From Escherichia coli (GTDB taxonomy: Bacteria; Pseudomonadota; Gammaproteobacteria; Enterobacterales; Enterobacteriaceae): a stretch of 64,000 nt of DNA. The notes under the pieces were generated by a model, which saw only the letters and a program-made list of their open reading frames with translations, had not been told where the DNA came from and ran no database searches. The stretch lies in the NCBI RefSeq assembly GCF_030013205.1, contig NZ_CP122648.1; one strand, written 5' to 3'. Shown here in pieces: positions 25,948-36,408 of this stretch; position 1 is the stretch's first letter, and each line of letters starts with the position of its first letter. The position numbers and the translations under genes were made by a program.

Positions 25948-26682
25948 ATGTCCAAACTCGATCTAAACGCCCTGAACGAACTGCCGAAGGTAGATCGCAT
26001 TCTGGCGCTGGCGGAAACTAACGCCGAACTGGAAAAACTGGACGCTGAAGGCCGCGTTGCCTGGGCGCTGGATAATCTGCCCGGTGAATATGTACTTTCT
26101 TCCAGCTTTGGCATTCAGGCGGCGGTGAGCCTGCATCTGGTGAATCAGATTCGCCCGGATATTCCAGTGATCCTCACCGATACGGGTTACTTGTTCCCGG
26201 AAACCTACCGCTTTATTGACGAGTTAACGGACAAACTCAAGCTCAACCTGAAAGTGTACCGCGCTACCGAAAGCGCCGCCTGGCAGGAAGCACGTTACGG
26301 AAAACTATGGGAGCAGGGCGTTGAAGGCATTGAAAAGTACAATGACATCAACAAAGTCGAACCGATGAACCGGGCGCTGAAAGAACTGAATGCGCAAACG
26401 TGGTTTGCTGGCCTGCGCCGCGAACAATCCGGCAGTCGCGCCAATTTACCGGTGCTGGCAATTCAGCGTGGCGTATTTAAAGTGCTGCCGATTATCGACT
26501 GGGATAACCGAACGATATATCAGTATCTGCAAAAACATGGCCTGAAATATCATCCATTATGGGACAAAGGATATTTATCCGTCGGTGATACCCATACAAC
26601 CCGTAAATGGGAACCCGGCATGGCGGAAGAAGAAACGCGTTTCTTTGGCTTAAAAAGGGAATGTGGGCTGCACGAAGGGTAA
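25948..26682 (+). CDS. cysH: phosphoadenosine phosphosulfate reductase
   Basis: 244 aa from the ATG at 25948 ([12 protein letters not shown]); C-terminal ECGLH motif. Confidence 0.9.
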
Positions 26683-26947
26683 AATATCGTACCGCTTAAT
26701 AAACGTCTCTGTCTGAAAAGATGGGGGCGTTTTTATTTTGCGAGCAGCATTCCTGATTTTAAACGTGAACGCCGCTGGAAGAATTATCAGGTATAGAATG
26801 GCGTTGGGTGCTTGAGGCTGTCTGGCGTTAAGCATTCGCGAGGTTCCAGATGGACAAAAGCCCCAGGCGATATTTCTATCAACCTGAGGCCAGCGTTCGA
26901 ACCCAAACAACTCGAATGTTAGTCTCTTCTTTGCAGGGAGGCAAGAC

Positions 26948-27100
26948 ATGCTGACAAAATATGCCCTTGTGGCAATCATAGTGCTGTGTTTTACAGTACT
27001 GGGATTCACGCTGATGGTAGGCGACTCGTTGTGTGAGTTGAGTATCAGAGAACGTGGTATGGAGTTTAAGGCAGTTCTCGCTTACGAATCGAAGAAGTAG
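26948..27100 (+). CDS. Hok/Gef-family type I toxin (small membrane peptide)
   Basis: 50-aa [54 protein letters not shown]-terminal TM helix and conserved Hok C-terminal DSLCE and AYES motifs; below the length cutoff of the ORF track. Confidence 0.7.
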
Positions 27101-27105
27101 CCACC

Positions 27106-27127
27106 ACGCGGGGGTAAAACCCCGCGT
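27106..27127 (+). terminator. GC-rich hairpin immediately after the hok stop
   Basis: acgcggggg-taaaa-ccccgcgt; may be the 3' stem of the hok mRNA or a terminator. Confidence 0.4.
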
Positions 27128-27294
27128 ATTGAATTGTGATGGTTTGGTCTCCTGCACCCTTTTTTAATTTATATTGTTTATGTGAATATTATGCCTATGT
27201 TTATTATTCATATATATTACGGATGAAAATTATTTGATTATTCATAATGTAAATATTTTATTGAACGATATATGTCACAGATAATTTTTAATAT

Positions 27295-29994
27295 ATGCGT
27301 AAATATCCTTTAAGTTTACTGAAGGATAAAAATATTGTGACTTTTTTTGATTTCTGGGGAAAAACCCGACGCGGCGAGAAAGACGGGGGCGACGACTATC
27401 ACCTTCTTTGCTGGCATTCGCTGGATGTAGCCGCGATGGGCTATTTAATGGTTAAAAGCAATTGCTTCGGGCTGGTTGACTATTTTCGTCAACTAGGTTT
27501 CGCTGATACGGAGCAGGCAGCACAATTTTTCGCCTGGCTATTGTGCTGGCACGATACTGGAAAATTTGCCCGCTCTTTTCAGCAACTTTACCTGCACCCA
27601 CAACTCAAGGTTCCGGAAGGCGCAAGAAAGAATTACGAAAAGATCTCTCATTCAACGCTGGGCTACTGGCTGTGGCATCATTATTTAAGTGAATACGAAG
27701 AATTGCTTCCTTCATCTTCACTCTCTCCGCGCAAACTTAAACGGGTGATGGAGATGTGGATGCCCATGACTACCGGGCATCATGGTCGGCCCCCTGACCG
27801 TATTGATGAACTGGATAATTTTCTGCCTGAAGACAAAGCTGCCGCACGAGATTTTCTCCTTGAAATCAAGGTACTGTTTCCGCTCATCGAGATCCCCGCA
27901 TTCTGGGATGATGACGAGGGCATTGAACTTTTAAAACAACTTTCCTGGTATATCTCTGCAACCGTCGTACTCGCAGACTGGACGGGATCGTCAACGCGGT
28001 TTTTTCCACGCGTTGCACAGGCAATGGATATTAAAGATTACTGGCAGAAGGCTTTAGTTCAGGCTCAAAACGCCTTAACCGTCTTTCCTCCAAAAGCACA
28101 AACCGCGCCTTTCACCGGAATTAATACACTGTTTCCTTTTATTGAGCACCCGACACCGTTACAGCAAAAGGTGCTGGATCTGGATATCAGCCAGCCAGGA
28201 CCGCAGTTATTTATTCTGGAAGATGTGACTGGCGCAGGTAAAACAGAAGCGGCGCTTATCCTGGCGCACAGGTTGATGGCTGCGAGGAAAGCACAGGGTT
28301 TGTTTTTTGGCCTGCCAACAATGGCAACGGCCAATGCCATGTACGATCGGTTGGTCAAAACCTGGCTTGCTTTCTATTCTCCAGAATCTCGCCCCAGCCT
28401 GGTGCTGGCACACAGTGCCCGCACATTAATGGATCGCTTTAATGAATCACTCTGGTCCGGTGATTTAGTCGGGTCAGAAGAACCGGATGAACAAACGTTC
28501 AGTCAGGGATGTGCGGCCTGGTTTGCCGACAGTAACAAGAAGGCGTTGCTGGCTGAAATTGGCGTCGGCACTTTGGATCAGGCGATGATGGCGGTGATGC
28601 CGTTCAAACATAATAATCTGCGGCTTCTGGGGCTGAGTAATAAAATCCTGCTGGCTGATGAGATCCACGCCTGTGACGCTTACATGTCATGCATTCTTGA
28701 AGGGCTGATCGAGCGGCAGGCGCGTGGCGGAAACAGCGTCATTTTGCTTTCTGCCACGTTATCTCAACAGCAGCGCGACAAACTCGTTGCTGCCTTTGCG
28801 CGTGGTACAGAGGGCCAGCAAGAAGCTCCGTTCCTGGAAAAGGATGATTACCCCTGGCTGACGCACGTTACGAAATCCGATGTGCATTCACACCGGGTAG
28901 CGACGCGCAAAGACGTTGAGCGTAGCGTGAGCGTGGGTTGGCTTCATAGCGAACAAGAATGTATTGCGCGTATCGAATCGGCAGTAAGTCAGGGGAAATG
29001 CATCGCCTGGATCCGGAATTCTGTCGATGACGCTATTAAGGTTTATCGTCAGTTGCTTGCCCGCGGCGTCATTCCTGCTTCCAGCCTTTCTCTGTTTCAT
29101 AGCCGCTTTGCTTTTAGCGATCGCCAGCGAATTGAAACGGAAACGCTGGCACGCTTCGGTAAAAGTTGTAGTTTACAGAGATCATCGCAACTCATTGTTT
29201 TTACACAAGTAATTGAACAAAGTGTGGATATTGACCTGGACGAAATGATATCCGACCTGGCCCCTGTTGATTTGCTGATCCAACGGGCGGGGCGATTACA
29301 GCGGCATATCCGCGATATTAATGGTCAGTTAAAGCGTGACGGAAAAGACGAGCGTTCCCCTCCTGAATTGCTGATTCTGGCCCCCGTCTGGGACGACGCT
29401 CCAGGTGACGAATGGTTCGGCAGTGCCATGCGTAACAGTGCATATGTCTATCCCGATCATGGACGAATCTGGCTGACGCAGCGTGTACTGCGTGAGCAAG
29501 GCGCGATTCAAATGCCACACGCAGCCCGCCTTCTTATTGAATCAGTCTACGGTGAGGACGTGGTAATGCCGGAAGGATTTGCCCGCAGCGAGCAGGAACA
29601 AGTGGGCAAATATTACTGCGATCGCGCAATGGCTAAAAAGTTTGTGCTGAACTTCAGGCCCGGCTATGCCGCCAATATCAACGATTACCTCCCGGAAAAA
29701 CTGTCGACACGTCTGGCTGAGGAGTCTGTTTCCCTGTGGCTGTCTACCTGTATTGCCGGTGTGGTGAAGCCTTATGCCAACGGTGCTCACGCATGGGAAA
29801 TGAGCGTTGTCAGAGTGCGTCGAAGCTGGTGGAAAAAACATCGGGATGAGTTTTCTTTACTGGAAGGGGATGCGTTCAGGCAGTGGTGCATTGAACAGCG
29901 GCAAGAGCCGGAGATGGCAAACGTGATTTTAGTCACCGATGACGAAAGTTGCGGGTATTCGGCTATGGAAGGATTGACTGGCAAGGTTGGTTGA
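27295..29994 (+). CDS. cas3: CRISPR-associated nuclease/helicase Cas3 (type I-E)
   Basis: 899-aa ORF; HD nuclease motifs (HLLCWHSLD, WHDTGKF), helicase Walker A (VTGAGKTEAA) and DExH-like box (LADEIHACD). Confidence 0.9.
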   Translation: MRKYPLSLLKDKNIVTFFDFWGKTRRGEKDGGDDYHLLCWHSLDVAAMGYLMVKSNCFGLVDYFRQLGFADTEQAAQFFAWLLCWHDTGKFARSFQQLYLHPQLKVPEGARKNYEKISHSTLGYWLWHHYLSEYEELLPSSSLSPRKLKRVMEMWMPMTTGHHGRPPDRIDELDNFLPEDKAAARDFLLEIKVLFPLIEIPAFWDDDEGIELLKQLSWYISATVVLADWTGSSTRFFPRVAQAMDIKDYWQKALVQAQNALTVFPPKAQTAPFTGINTLFPFIEHPTPLQQKVLDLDISQPGPQLFILEDVTGAGKTEAALILAHRLMAARKAQGLFFGLPTMATANAMYDRLVKTWLAFYSPESRPSLVLAHSARTLMDRFNESLWSGDLVGSEEPDEQTFSQGCAAWFADSNKKALLAEIGVGTLDQAMMAVMPFKHNNLRLLGLSNKILLADEIHACDAYMSCILEGLIERQARGGNSVILLSATLSQQQRDKLVAAFARGTEGQQEAPFLEKDDYPWLTHVTKSDVHSHRVATRKDVERSVSVGWLHSEQECIARIESAVSQGKCIAWIRNSVDDAIKVYRQLLARGVIPASSLSLFHSRFAFSDRQRIETETLARFGKSCSLQRSSQLIVFTQVIEQSVDIDLDEMISDLAPVDLLIQRAGRLQRHIRDINGQLKRDGKDERSPPELLILAPVWDDAPGDEWFGSAMRNSAYVYPDHGRIWLTQRVLREQGAIQMPHAARLLIESVYGEDVVMPEGFARSEQEQVGKYYCDRAMAKKFVLNFRPGYAANINDYLPEKLSTRLAEESVSLWLSTCIAGVVKPYANGAHAWEMSVVRVRRSWWKKHRDEFSLLEGDAFRQWCIEQRQEPEMANVILVTDDESCGYSAMEGLTGKVG

Positions 29995-35856: not shown

Positions 35857-35952
35857 GTTATCTGTTCTTTAAAAATAAGGAAATGTTTTAATTTAGTTGG
35901 TAGATTGTTGATGCGGAATAAATTTGTTTAAAAACAGTTATGTATGCTTAGT
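35857..35952 (+). promoter_or_regulatory. AT-rich CRISPR leader, cas2-proximal
   Basis: AT-rich 96 bp between cas2 and the first repeat; contains tttagttggtagattgttg, conserved with the queE-side leader. Confidence 0.6.
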
Positions 35953-36408
35953 GTGTTCCCCGCGCCAGCGGGGATAAACCGCATAATCCCGGCTGGAAAC
36001 ATTGCGGGGGTAAGTGTTCCCCGCGCCAGCGGGGATAAACCGCGACCGATCCCGCTGTTGCAACTTTTATTGAGGTGTTCCCCGCGCCAGCGGGGATAAA
36101 CCGGTGATGAGGAAAAGCTAATAGAATGGCGACGCGTGTTCCCCGCGCCAGCGGGGATAAACCGGTCCACGGTTCGACGCCTACCGCCGCAGCTATGTGT
36201 TCCCCGCGCCAGCGGGGATAAACCGTTGTCGGGCTTGTTCGGCGCGGGTTGTTAACTGTGTTCCCCGCGCCAGCGGGGATAAACCGCCAGTCGAAGATCT
36301 GGACGCGTGGGGAAAAGCGTGTTCCCCGCGTCAGCGGGGATAAACCGGACGCACTGGATGCGATGATGGATATCACTTAGAATTCCCCGCCCCTGCGGTA
36401 GAACTCCC
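35953..36408 (+). CRISPR. type I-E CRISPR array, 7 repeats plus a degenerate terminal repeat, 7 spacers
   Basis: 29-bp repeats GTGTTCCCCGCGCCAGCGGGGATAAACCG at 35953, 36014, 36075, 36136, 36197, 36258, 36319 (the last with gcgTcag); 32-bp spacers between them; degenerate final unit gaattccccgcccctgcggtagaactccc at 36380. Confidence 0.95.

Follow-up and report, generated by a model that had tools for sequence, protein, structure and literature searches.

The hok/sok (mok) locus of plasmid R1 is the founding type I toxin-antitoxin system, and its Hok/Gef peptide of about 50 amino acids is shared with the chromosomal locus described here. The mRNA of R1 hok is characterised by tac/fbi pairing, by complementary boxes that sequester the ribosome-binding sites, by a metastable 5′ structure and by 3′ processing, and toxicity is lost when mok carries a premature stop ahead of the hok start (PMC9841398). 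In E. coli, a locus that flanks cysH has been called hokX/sokX or the 'hok sok system' (PMC7232551, PMC12736100, PMC11598369, PMC3903273). In a set of 237 urinary isolates, hok and sokX were present beside cysH in 90%, while the rest carried sokX alone, 'similar to K-12' (PMC12736100). The name hokX is in use for E. coli B and for the AIEC strain NRG857c, and sokX of K-12 is annotated as b4701. The locus is thus already named, mapped to the cysH flank and surveyed across E. coli, and it is an ordinary feature of the species.

A second system to be compared is CreTA of the type I-B CRISPR-Cas of Haloarcula, an RNA toxin-antitoxin that, according to work by Li et al. in 2021, reportedly makes cells addicted to CRISPR-Cas. 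CreTA is part of the cas operon, and its antitoxin works only with Cascade. The likeness to hokX/sokX is limited to a small toxin/antitoxin module beside cas genes. Unlike CreTA, hokX/sokX is self-contained and is present in strains without cas genes.

Identity of the locus between cysH and cas3

We analysed a stretch of 64,000 nucleotides of E. coli DNA (hereafter the window), in which the intergenic space between cysH and cas3 covers exactly positions 26683-27294, with the cysH stop at 26682 and the cas3 ATG at 27295. The original prediction had placed a Hok-family toxin gene with a leader open reading frame (ORF) in this space, and all of these elements were found at their predicted positions. 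Over 26683-27294 the window matches the E. coli K_EC180 chromosome at 100% identity; for that region RefSeq gives the order cysJ-cysI-cysH, Hok/Gef family protein (WP_000956460.1), Cas3, CasA. The position directly downstream of cysH is the same as that of the described hokX/sokX of E. coli (PMC7232551, PMC12736100, PMC3903273). We are highly confident that these genes form the hokX/sokX type I toxin-antitoxin locus of the E. coli chromosome, a member of the hok/sok family. It is a textbook-type hok/sok module, and its significance beyond correct annotation is slight. In RefSeq only the peptide is listed; the minus-strand sokX and the structured hokX mRNA of about 360 nt merit annotation as well.

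The upstream border of the module is marked by the intrinsic terminator of cysH (26701..26742, plus strand), which was detected in a terminator scan as a 14-pair stem followed by a T-run and which itself lies outside the module. A match to the Rfam family ctRNA_p42d at 26699-26741 (26.4 bits against a gathering score of 50) is this same terminator hairpin and not a plasmid-type countertranscript.

The toxin gene hokX (26948..27100, plus strand) encodes a Hok/Gef membrane toxin of 50 amino acids, the F15 variant WP_000956460.1, and was assigned by Pfam HOK_GEF, RefSeq annotation and dN/dS. When the peptide was compared with Pfam PF01848 (HOK_GEF), residues 5-46 matched the full model (1-42 of 42) with an E-value of 3.5e-11 and a score of 43.0. 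The NCBIfam models for HokA and for the Hok family also matched, with E-values of 9e-16 and 1.3e-10, but as their scores were under the curated cut-offs (57.7 versus 89 and 41 versus 73, respectively) they were left out of the decision on family membership. The family assignment was judged unambiguous. The predicted architecture, an N-terminal transmembrane helix followed by the DSLCE and AYES motifs, was confirmed by sequence and hydrophobicity: residues 6-24 are the most hydrophobic 19-residue stretch (mean Kyte-Doolittle value 2.78), and the motifs are found at residues 26-30 and 45-48. A Shine-Dalgarno sequence (GGGAGG, 26936-41) is spaced 6 nt from the start codon. Residue 15 is a cysteine in most strains and a phenylalanine in the window, and the HokX protein of BL21 is identical to that of the window. 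Most sampled E. coli have an identical peptide despite a DNA divergence of 2-4%. A dN/dS of 0.05-0.17 against 13 relatives across genera indicates that the hok reading frame is under strong purifying selection.

The SokX antisense RNA and the hokX mRNA

The K-12 sokX gene (NC_000913.3 2887353-2887411), annotated with a length of 59 nt, aligns to the minus strand of the window from 26908 to 26850 with zero mismatches over 59 nt. As predicted for a Hok-family toxin with a cis-antisense Sok RNA, the antitoxin gene therefore maps base for base to the leader region, here as a feature at 26850..26908. The orientation of K-12 sokX is opposite to that of cysH and cas3. The SokX RNA has a predicted folding energy of -23.8 kcal/mol (z = -3.29) and consists of a short 5′ hairpin (bases 1-14), followed by a long terminator-like hairpin and a U-run; the terminator stem is GGCCUCAGGU.UGAU/AUCGCCUGGGGC, followed by UUUUGU. 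In the EHEC sokX region the RNA-seq signal is modest.

By reading the sequence, we assigned a Sok promoter to 26916..26944 on the minus strand, with a -35 hexamer TTGCCT (complement of 26939-26944), a 17-nt spacer and a -10 hexamer TAACAT (complement of 26916-26921) that is 7 nt from the annotated SokX 5′ end at 26908. The -35 overlaps the Shine-Dalgarno region of hok. In an alignment across 8 genera, positions 26916-26947 were nearly invariant, and K-12 retains the Sok promoter up to its deletion breakpoint at 26950. The expectation of a minus-strand promoter with a short Sok-like RNA was thus borne out for the 59-nt RNA and for the presence of plausible hexamers, but these fit only 8 of 12 consensus positions and remained under the threshold of the consensus scan (9/12). 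On the plus strand, a putative -10 of the hokX promoter (TAGAAT, 26794..26799) could be read, separated by 7 nt from the 5′ end of the mRNA; no good -35 was recognised for it in the sequence. A hok promoter of low strength would be in line with R1. A consensus promoter and terminator scan of 26600-27400 flagged no hok promoter, Sok promoter or hok mRNA terminator; its only calls were the terminator of cysH and, within hok, a single promoter at chance level. As neither promoter was flagged, the promoter assignments rest on position and conservation.

When the window was searched for RNA families, the Rfam family RF01794 ('sok') matched positions 26806-26963 over its full model (1-157), scoring 107.5 bits where the gathering score is 59, at an E-value of 5.8e-25. 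This was the sole gathering-level RNA family match in the 64-kb window. The match is on the hok-sense strand, so that the model in effect describes the leader of the hok mRNA. Based on the start of this match at model position 1 and on the predicted fold, we placed the full-length hokX mRNA of about 360 nt at 26806..27166 (plus strand), from GGGUGCUUGAGG to the U-run after fbi. The minimum-free-energy fold of 26806-27170 was better than 100 of 100 shuffles (z = -3.57) and paired the first with the last bases. The Pfam and Rfam matches, the dN/dS of hok and this folding score indicate that the features of the locus did not arise by chance. In E. coli strains that have no cas genes, the sequence shared with the window extends to about 27166 (query positions 18-484).

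To obtain related loci, species-representative genomes were scanned with a 16-base pattern, which gave at least 120 loci with many chance matches in unrelated phyla; only loci confirmed by blastn or tblastn were used, and E. fergusonii and Salmonella were left out. Loci of the hokX type with 79-86% DNA identity over the whole mRNA were found in Citrobacter, Klebsiella, Kluyvera, Pseudocitrobacter, Atlantibacter and Yokenella. When 15 loci from 8 genera, including these six and Escherichia, were folded jointly with RNAalifold, the consensus contained 12 pairs with compensatory changes.

In the predicted fold, the tac element (GGGUGCUUGAGG, 26806..26817) pairs with the fbi element (UCUCCUGCACCC, 27148..27159), which is followed by six U residues (27160-27165). 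The pairs 26806-11 with 27154-59 and 26814-17 with 27148-51 are kept in 13-15 of 15 loci. Changes in this helix across loci are one-sided (G-C to G-U), with zero true double compensations, because tac itself is invariant in 15 of 15 aligned loci. Directly downstream of tac, the consensus fold contains a 5′ hairpin (26818..26853; 26818-26825 with 26846-26853), whose stem includes the leader ATG and whose loop includes the Shine-Dalgarno sequence of the leader, GAGG (26840-26843). One of its column pairs, 15/47, is compensatory (GU in 7 loci, UA in 4, AU in 3 and GC in 1). Further downstream, a ucb-like box (26922-26933) and the hok Shine-Dalgarno region (26936-26941), together spanning 26922..26946, are predicted to pair with the end of the hok reading frame (27076-27101); the consensus pairs 26922-33 with 27090-101 and 26937-46 with 27076-85 are present in 14-15 of 15 loci. 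A stable G+C-rich hairpin directly after the hok stop codon (27106..27127) appeared in all three folds, and its pairs are kept in 13-15 of 15 loci. By the R1 model (PMC9841398), this hairpin is likely the point at which 3′ exonucleolytic trimming would stop, giving a truncated active mRNA. In the predicted fold of the truncated hokX RNA, the 5′ end refolds into a local hairpin. According to these fold predictions, related loci of seven other genera share the features of a hok-type mRNA (tac/fbi, a stable 3′ hairpin and a sequestered Shine-Dalgarno sequence).

By analogy with R1, the module would work as follows. From the plus strand an mRNA of about 360 nt would be transcribed starting at 26806, and in its full-length form it would be locked in three ways: by the tac–fbi pairing, by inclusion of the leader start codon in the 5′ hairpin and by pairing of the hok Shine-Dalgarno sequence with the last hok codons. 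Slow trimming of the 3′ end to the hairpin at 27106-27127 would remove fbi, upon which the mRNA could refold into a translatable form. The short SokX RNA, produced from the minus strand (26908 to 26850) by a promoter that overlaps the ribosome-binding region of hok, would pair with the leader and thereby block translation, and probably also trigger cleavage by RNase III. If HokX is made, it would insert in the inner membrane and kill or arrest the cell. In this scheme the sequence elements, the family matches, their conservation and the predicted pairings come from the present analysis, and the 3′ processing, the refolding, the coupling through the leader and the toxicity are all carried over from R1.

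The two systems have several features in common. In each, a Sok RNA is encoded in cis, antisense to the mRNA, with a separate promoter located in the leader; tac and fbi pair 5′-3′ and the hok Shine-Dalgarno sequence is sequestered (both predicted on the hokX side); a 5′ hairpin can accommodate tac; and a leader ORF extends as far as the start of hok. On the other hand, hokX is chromosomal and single-copy, whereas R1 hok resides on a plasmid. The leader ORF of hokX ends 4 nt after the hok ATG, while mok of R1, with 70 codons, extends over most of hok, and unlike in R1 the leader ORF of hokX appears to have been dispensable in evolution. Moreover, hokX has no separate terminator hairpin after fbi, again unlike R1. 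Post-segregational killing by chromosomal hokX is not expected. Pedersen and Gerdes are said to have found in 1999 that chromosomal hok loci gave no plasmid stabilisation by post-segregational killing.

The leader open reading frame

A mokX-like ORF of 34 codons precedes hokX on the plus strand (26850..26954). Its stop codon TGA (26952-26954) overlaps the hok ATG (26948-26950) as ATGCTGA, its GAGG Shine-Dalgarno sequence lies 6 nt upstream of the start codon, and its first 19 codons are covered by SokX. The original prediction had considered it a mok-like, translationally coupled leader. In the window the ORF is indeed uninterrupted and ends on the hok start, but it did not prove to be a conserved equivalent of mok.

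The ORF is open in the window, K-12, BL21 and O26-type strains, and is stopped at codon 19 in about half of the hokX-bearing E. coli. Two alleles account for this stop: TAA, found in 616 genomes as an exact 40-nt haplotype, and TAG combined with a 1-nt deletion, found in up to 1585 genomes, for instance in O157:H7 and ST131. The proportions of leader alleles were taken from a sample of 60 evenly spaced rows. [quoted passage not shown] The exact haplotype that the window has in the leader (C at 26911) occurs rarely, with only 23 records at least 99% identical over the whole intergenic region.

Among six other Escherichia-type representatives examined, four have the leader stop at codon 19, one has it at codon 7, and in one the leader is frameshifted and ends at codon 24. 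The ORF runs for 22 codons in the E. albertii copy, which breaks off at the edge of a contig beyond the leader and, like K-12, appears to be without the hok CDS. Outside Escherichia, in the six genera named above, the leader ATG is absent and ATA, AAA, AAG, ACA or AGA is found in its place. A shorter ORF of 12 codons (ATG 26916 to TGA 26954), likewise ended by ATGCTGA, is the only upstream ORF that extends to the hok start in as many as 25 of 29 loci. Since the 34-codon ORF is interrupted or without an ATG in many loci, a mok-like role in coupling is uncertain, and the ORF may not work as mok does in R1.

A tentative but serious reading of these data is that the 34-codon ORF is no functional mok equivalent, that hokX would be translated directly or via the 12-codon ORF, and that the long ORF is a by-product of a change of the codon-19 stop to CAA. 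The existence of two different stop alleles, the similar numbers of sampled genomes with stopped and with open leaders beside a hok CDS, and the early stops in all six other Escherichia-type representatives are consistent with it, as is the loss of the ATG in other genera, where the Hok peptide is nevertheless under strong purifying selection. The conservation of the ATGCTGA-ended short ORF would fit a route through its 12 codons. However, this short ORF has no recognisable Shine-Dalgarno sequence, and its ATG lies opposite the Sok -10, to which it is complementary, in a stretch constrained by the Sok promoter, the hok Shine-Dalgarno sequence and ucb; because the stretch is invariant for these other reasons, conservation of the 12-codon ORF says little. 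In addition, the truncated leader alleles could be merely silenced copies, given the effect of mok stops in R1 (PMC9841398), and the 34-codon ORF of the window does have a well-spaced GAGG and SokX complementarity over its first 19 codons. Either about half of the natural hokX loci would be translationally silent, or hokX would be independent of the 34-codon ORF. We tentatively favour such independence, because the peptide is strictly conserved in genera without a leader ATG.

It is rather doubtful, although worth stating, that the leader polymorphism acts as a natural on/off switch or points to an undescribed coupling route via the 12-codon ORF. If the R1 rule applied and the leader were a switch, only lineages with CAA at codon 19 (the window, O26, O103 and the BL21 type) would make HokX, whereas E. 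coli with TAA or TAG (O157:H7, ST131 and other B2 strains) and other Escherichia would carry a translationally silent, conserved toxin gene. Either outcome, the switch or the 12-codon route, would revise the generality of the mok requirement in the hok family.

Distribution of hokX and its relation to the cas genes

We surveyed 5426 complete E. coli genomes. The leader/sokX segment was present in 5292 and the hok CDS in 4218 of them, the latter always single-copy and always chromosomal. In an evenly spaced sample, 39 of 40 rows had a hok CDS of exactly 153 nt with at least 96% identity. The cas3 variant of the window was found in 2721 genomes. The K-12-type cas3 was found in 1140 genomes, and these were without the hok CDS; in strains of this type the similarity to the window continues as far as the hok ATG (window position 26950) and is lost beyond it. 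In K-12 everything after this ATG is missing. In BL21-type copies the 3′ end is lost beyond 27122, and fbi is therefore gone. An intact hokX is the norm, and the K-12 state, with sokX alone, is a minority exception. The intact copy of the window, which had been regarded as notable, is thus the common form, and comparison of the intergenic region across genomes did not reveal a disabling of the hok ORF in most strains.

Two further explanations were weighed. The copy of the window could be a silent relic, intact in sequence but unexpressed or harmless like the inactivated hok loci of K-12, which a passage of PMC7232551, citing Pedersen and Gerdes 1999, describes as non-functional. Insertion sequences have disrupted the locus in some strains (at the hok start in E2348/69, and by an IS1 that truncates hok in PSJ-42), the BL21-type break removes fbi, and the modest RNA-seq signal of the EHEC sokX region would also agree with a locus of little activity. 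The window copy, however, contains neither an IS nor the breakpoint, and all regulatory elements are present and conserved across 8 genera. The low dN/dS of hok and the identical peptide in most sampled E. coli argue against decay as well. We therefore consider a silent relic unlikely. Far less probable is the suggestion of the original prediction that hokX/sokX lends stability to the CRISPR-Cas locus beside it or shares its regulation; in the first case it would act as an addiction module, and in the second it would be co-regulated with cas3, for example through transcriptional read-through from hokX. It is true that hokX is on the same strand and only about 128 nt upstream of the cas3 ATG, that no canonical terminator was called at the 3′ end of the hok mRNA, which makes some read-through conceivable, and that hok sok belongs to the variable 'CRISPR-I' region (PMC3903273). 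Nevertheless, in ST131, E2348/69, D8, TUM13066 and 82.0312 hokX lies between cysH and iap with zero cas genes, and in O26 RM10386 and strain 64.1 an intact hokX stands beside a cas3 pseudogene. The genome counts of the hok CDS and of the window-type cas3 differ, and the 1140 genomes with a K-12-type cas operon are without the hok CDS. The same distribution of hok versus cas type was published by Almendros et al. 2014 (PMC3903273). As co-occurrence fails in both directions, with hokX present without cas genes and K-12-type cas genes present without hokX, we rejected a CRISPR-stabilising role; only read-through from hokX into cas3 remains conceivable, as a weak possibility.

The comparison of genomes indicates instead that the loss of hokX accompanied the exchange for the K-12-type cas operon, and that hokX does not act as a CRISPR-Cas partner. 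The hokX/sokX module is an old resident and a marker of the ancestral cysH flank. In Atlantibacter the hokX-type loci also adjoin cysH, while no cysH match was found near the loci of the other genera, which likewise speaks against a tie to the cas genes. Reading of the sequence revealed no crRNA-like repeat beside hokX/sokX. Tandem Repeats Finder found no CRISPR array, and a direct-repeat search found one.

Upstream reading frames and the SokX strand

The leader ORF that precedes hokX in a mok-like arrangement (26850-26954, + strand) is polymorphic in E. coli at codon 19 (26904-26906), as seen when the window was compared with loci L005, L008, L009, L011, L012 and L135 from other genomes. In the window, K-12, BL21 and O26 this codon is CAA, which leaves the 34-codon leader ORF open. 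In O157:H7, ST131 and others, codon 19 is a stop, either TAA or TAG together with a deletion of 1 nt. Among the hokX-bearing E. coli genomes, open and stopped leader ORFs are found in roughly equal numbers.

A shorter ORF of 12 codons (26916-26954), which ends on the hok start as ATGCTGA, is kept in 25 of the 29 hokX-type loci from 8 genera. The -10 box of Sok, TAACAT, is the complement of the ATG of this ORF, and the conservation of the 12-codon ORF may therefore stem from the promoter rather than from coding.

The Rfam model RF01794 ('sok antitoxin') matches 26806-26963 on the + strand, which is the hok-sense strand, starting at the 5′ end of the mRNA. The annotated SokX RNA, on the other hand, lies on the opposite strand (26850-26908, - strand). 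Annotation pipelines that rely on RF01794 would give 'sok' the wrong strand and an excessive length (157 nt versus ~59 nt).

Variation and disruption of hokX

Residue 15 of HokX (26990-26992), within the membrane helix, is F15 in the window and in BL21 (WP_000956460.1), whereas nearly all remaining sampled E. coli carry C15 (WP_000956458.1). In other genera, this position is occupied by I, A or F.

BL21-RIPL (L006, 3249-3740), along with a further class of strains, is similar to the window only up to 27122, just within the 3′ hairpin (27106-27127), so that the fbi element (27148-27159), the 3′ part of the mRNA predicted to pair with the 5′ tac, is lost. Past the break, the BL21-RIPL annotation continues with tRNA-Lys, cpoB and pal, implying that the DNA has been rearranged here. 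IS elements strike the locus in E2348/69 (L004, 2905-3939) and PSJ-42 (L007, 2248-3074). In the former, a partial IS (an integrase core domain pseudogene) splits the leader from the hok coding sequence at the hok start, and the latter has lost the leader, along with the first half of hok, to an IS1.

The adjoining cas3 gene and the CRISPR array

In O26 RM10386 (L010, 747-953) and in strain 64.1 (L011, 748-953), the cas3 gene that neighbours hokX carries a pseudogene annotation, with an internal stop in one and a frameshift in the other; both strains encode an intact HokX peptide. In the window, a type I-E CRISPR array (35938-36347) of 7 repeats (GTGTTCCCCGCGCCAGCGGGGATAAACCG) with a spacing of 61 nt, the final repeat having one mismatch, lies downstream of the cas operon. 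Tandem Repeats Finder did not detect the array at this position.

hokX-type loci in other species

In E. albertii NBRC 107761 (L017, 1322-1473), the hokX leader/sokX region adjoins cysH, and divergence sets in exactly where the hok ATG would stand (GACATTGTATGGGG), resembling K-12; the contig ends at this point. Some contigs in assemblies labelled as Pseudocitrobacter faecalis and P. vendiensis (L031, QNRL01000003.1; L120, CALSBS010000035.1) have a cysH-hokX region that is 90-96% identical to E. coli, and the same assemblies hold their own, more divergent hokX-type copies (L032 and L115). The E. coli-like contigs could reflect contamination or a recent transfer. Klebsiella spallanzanii (L098) carries tandem hokX-type loci on one contig (492-814 and 1694-2016), ~1.2 kb apart and each with an intact 50-aa ORF.
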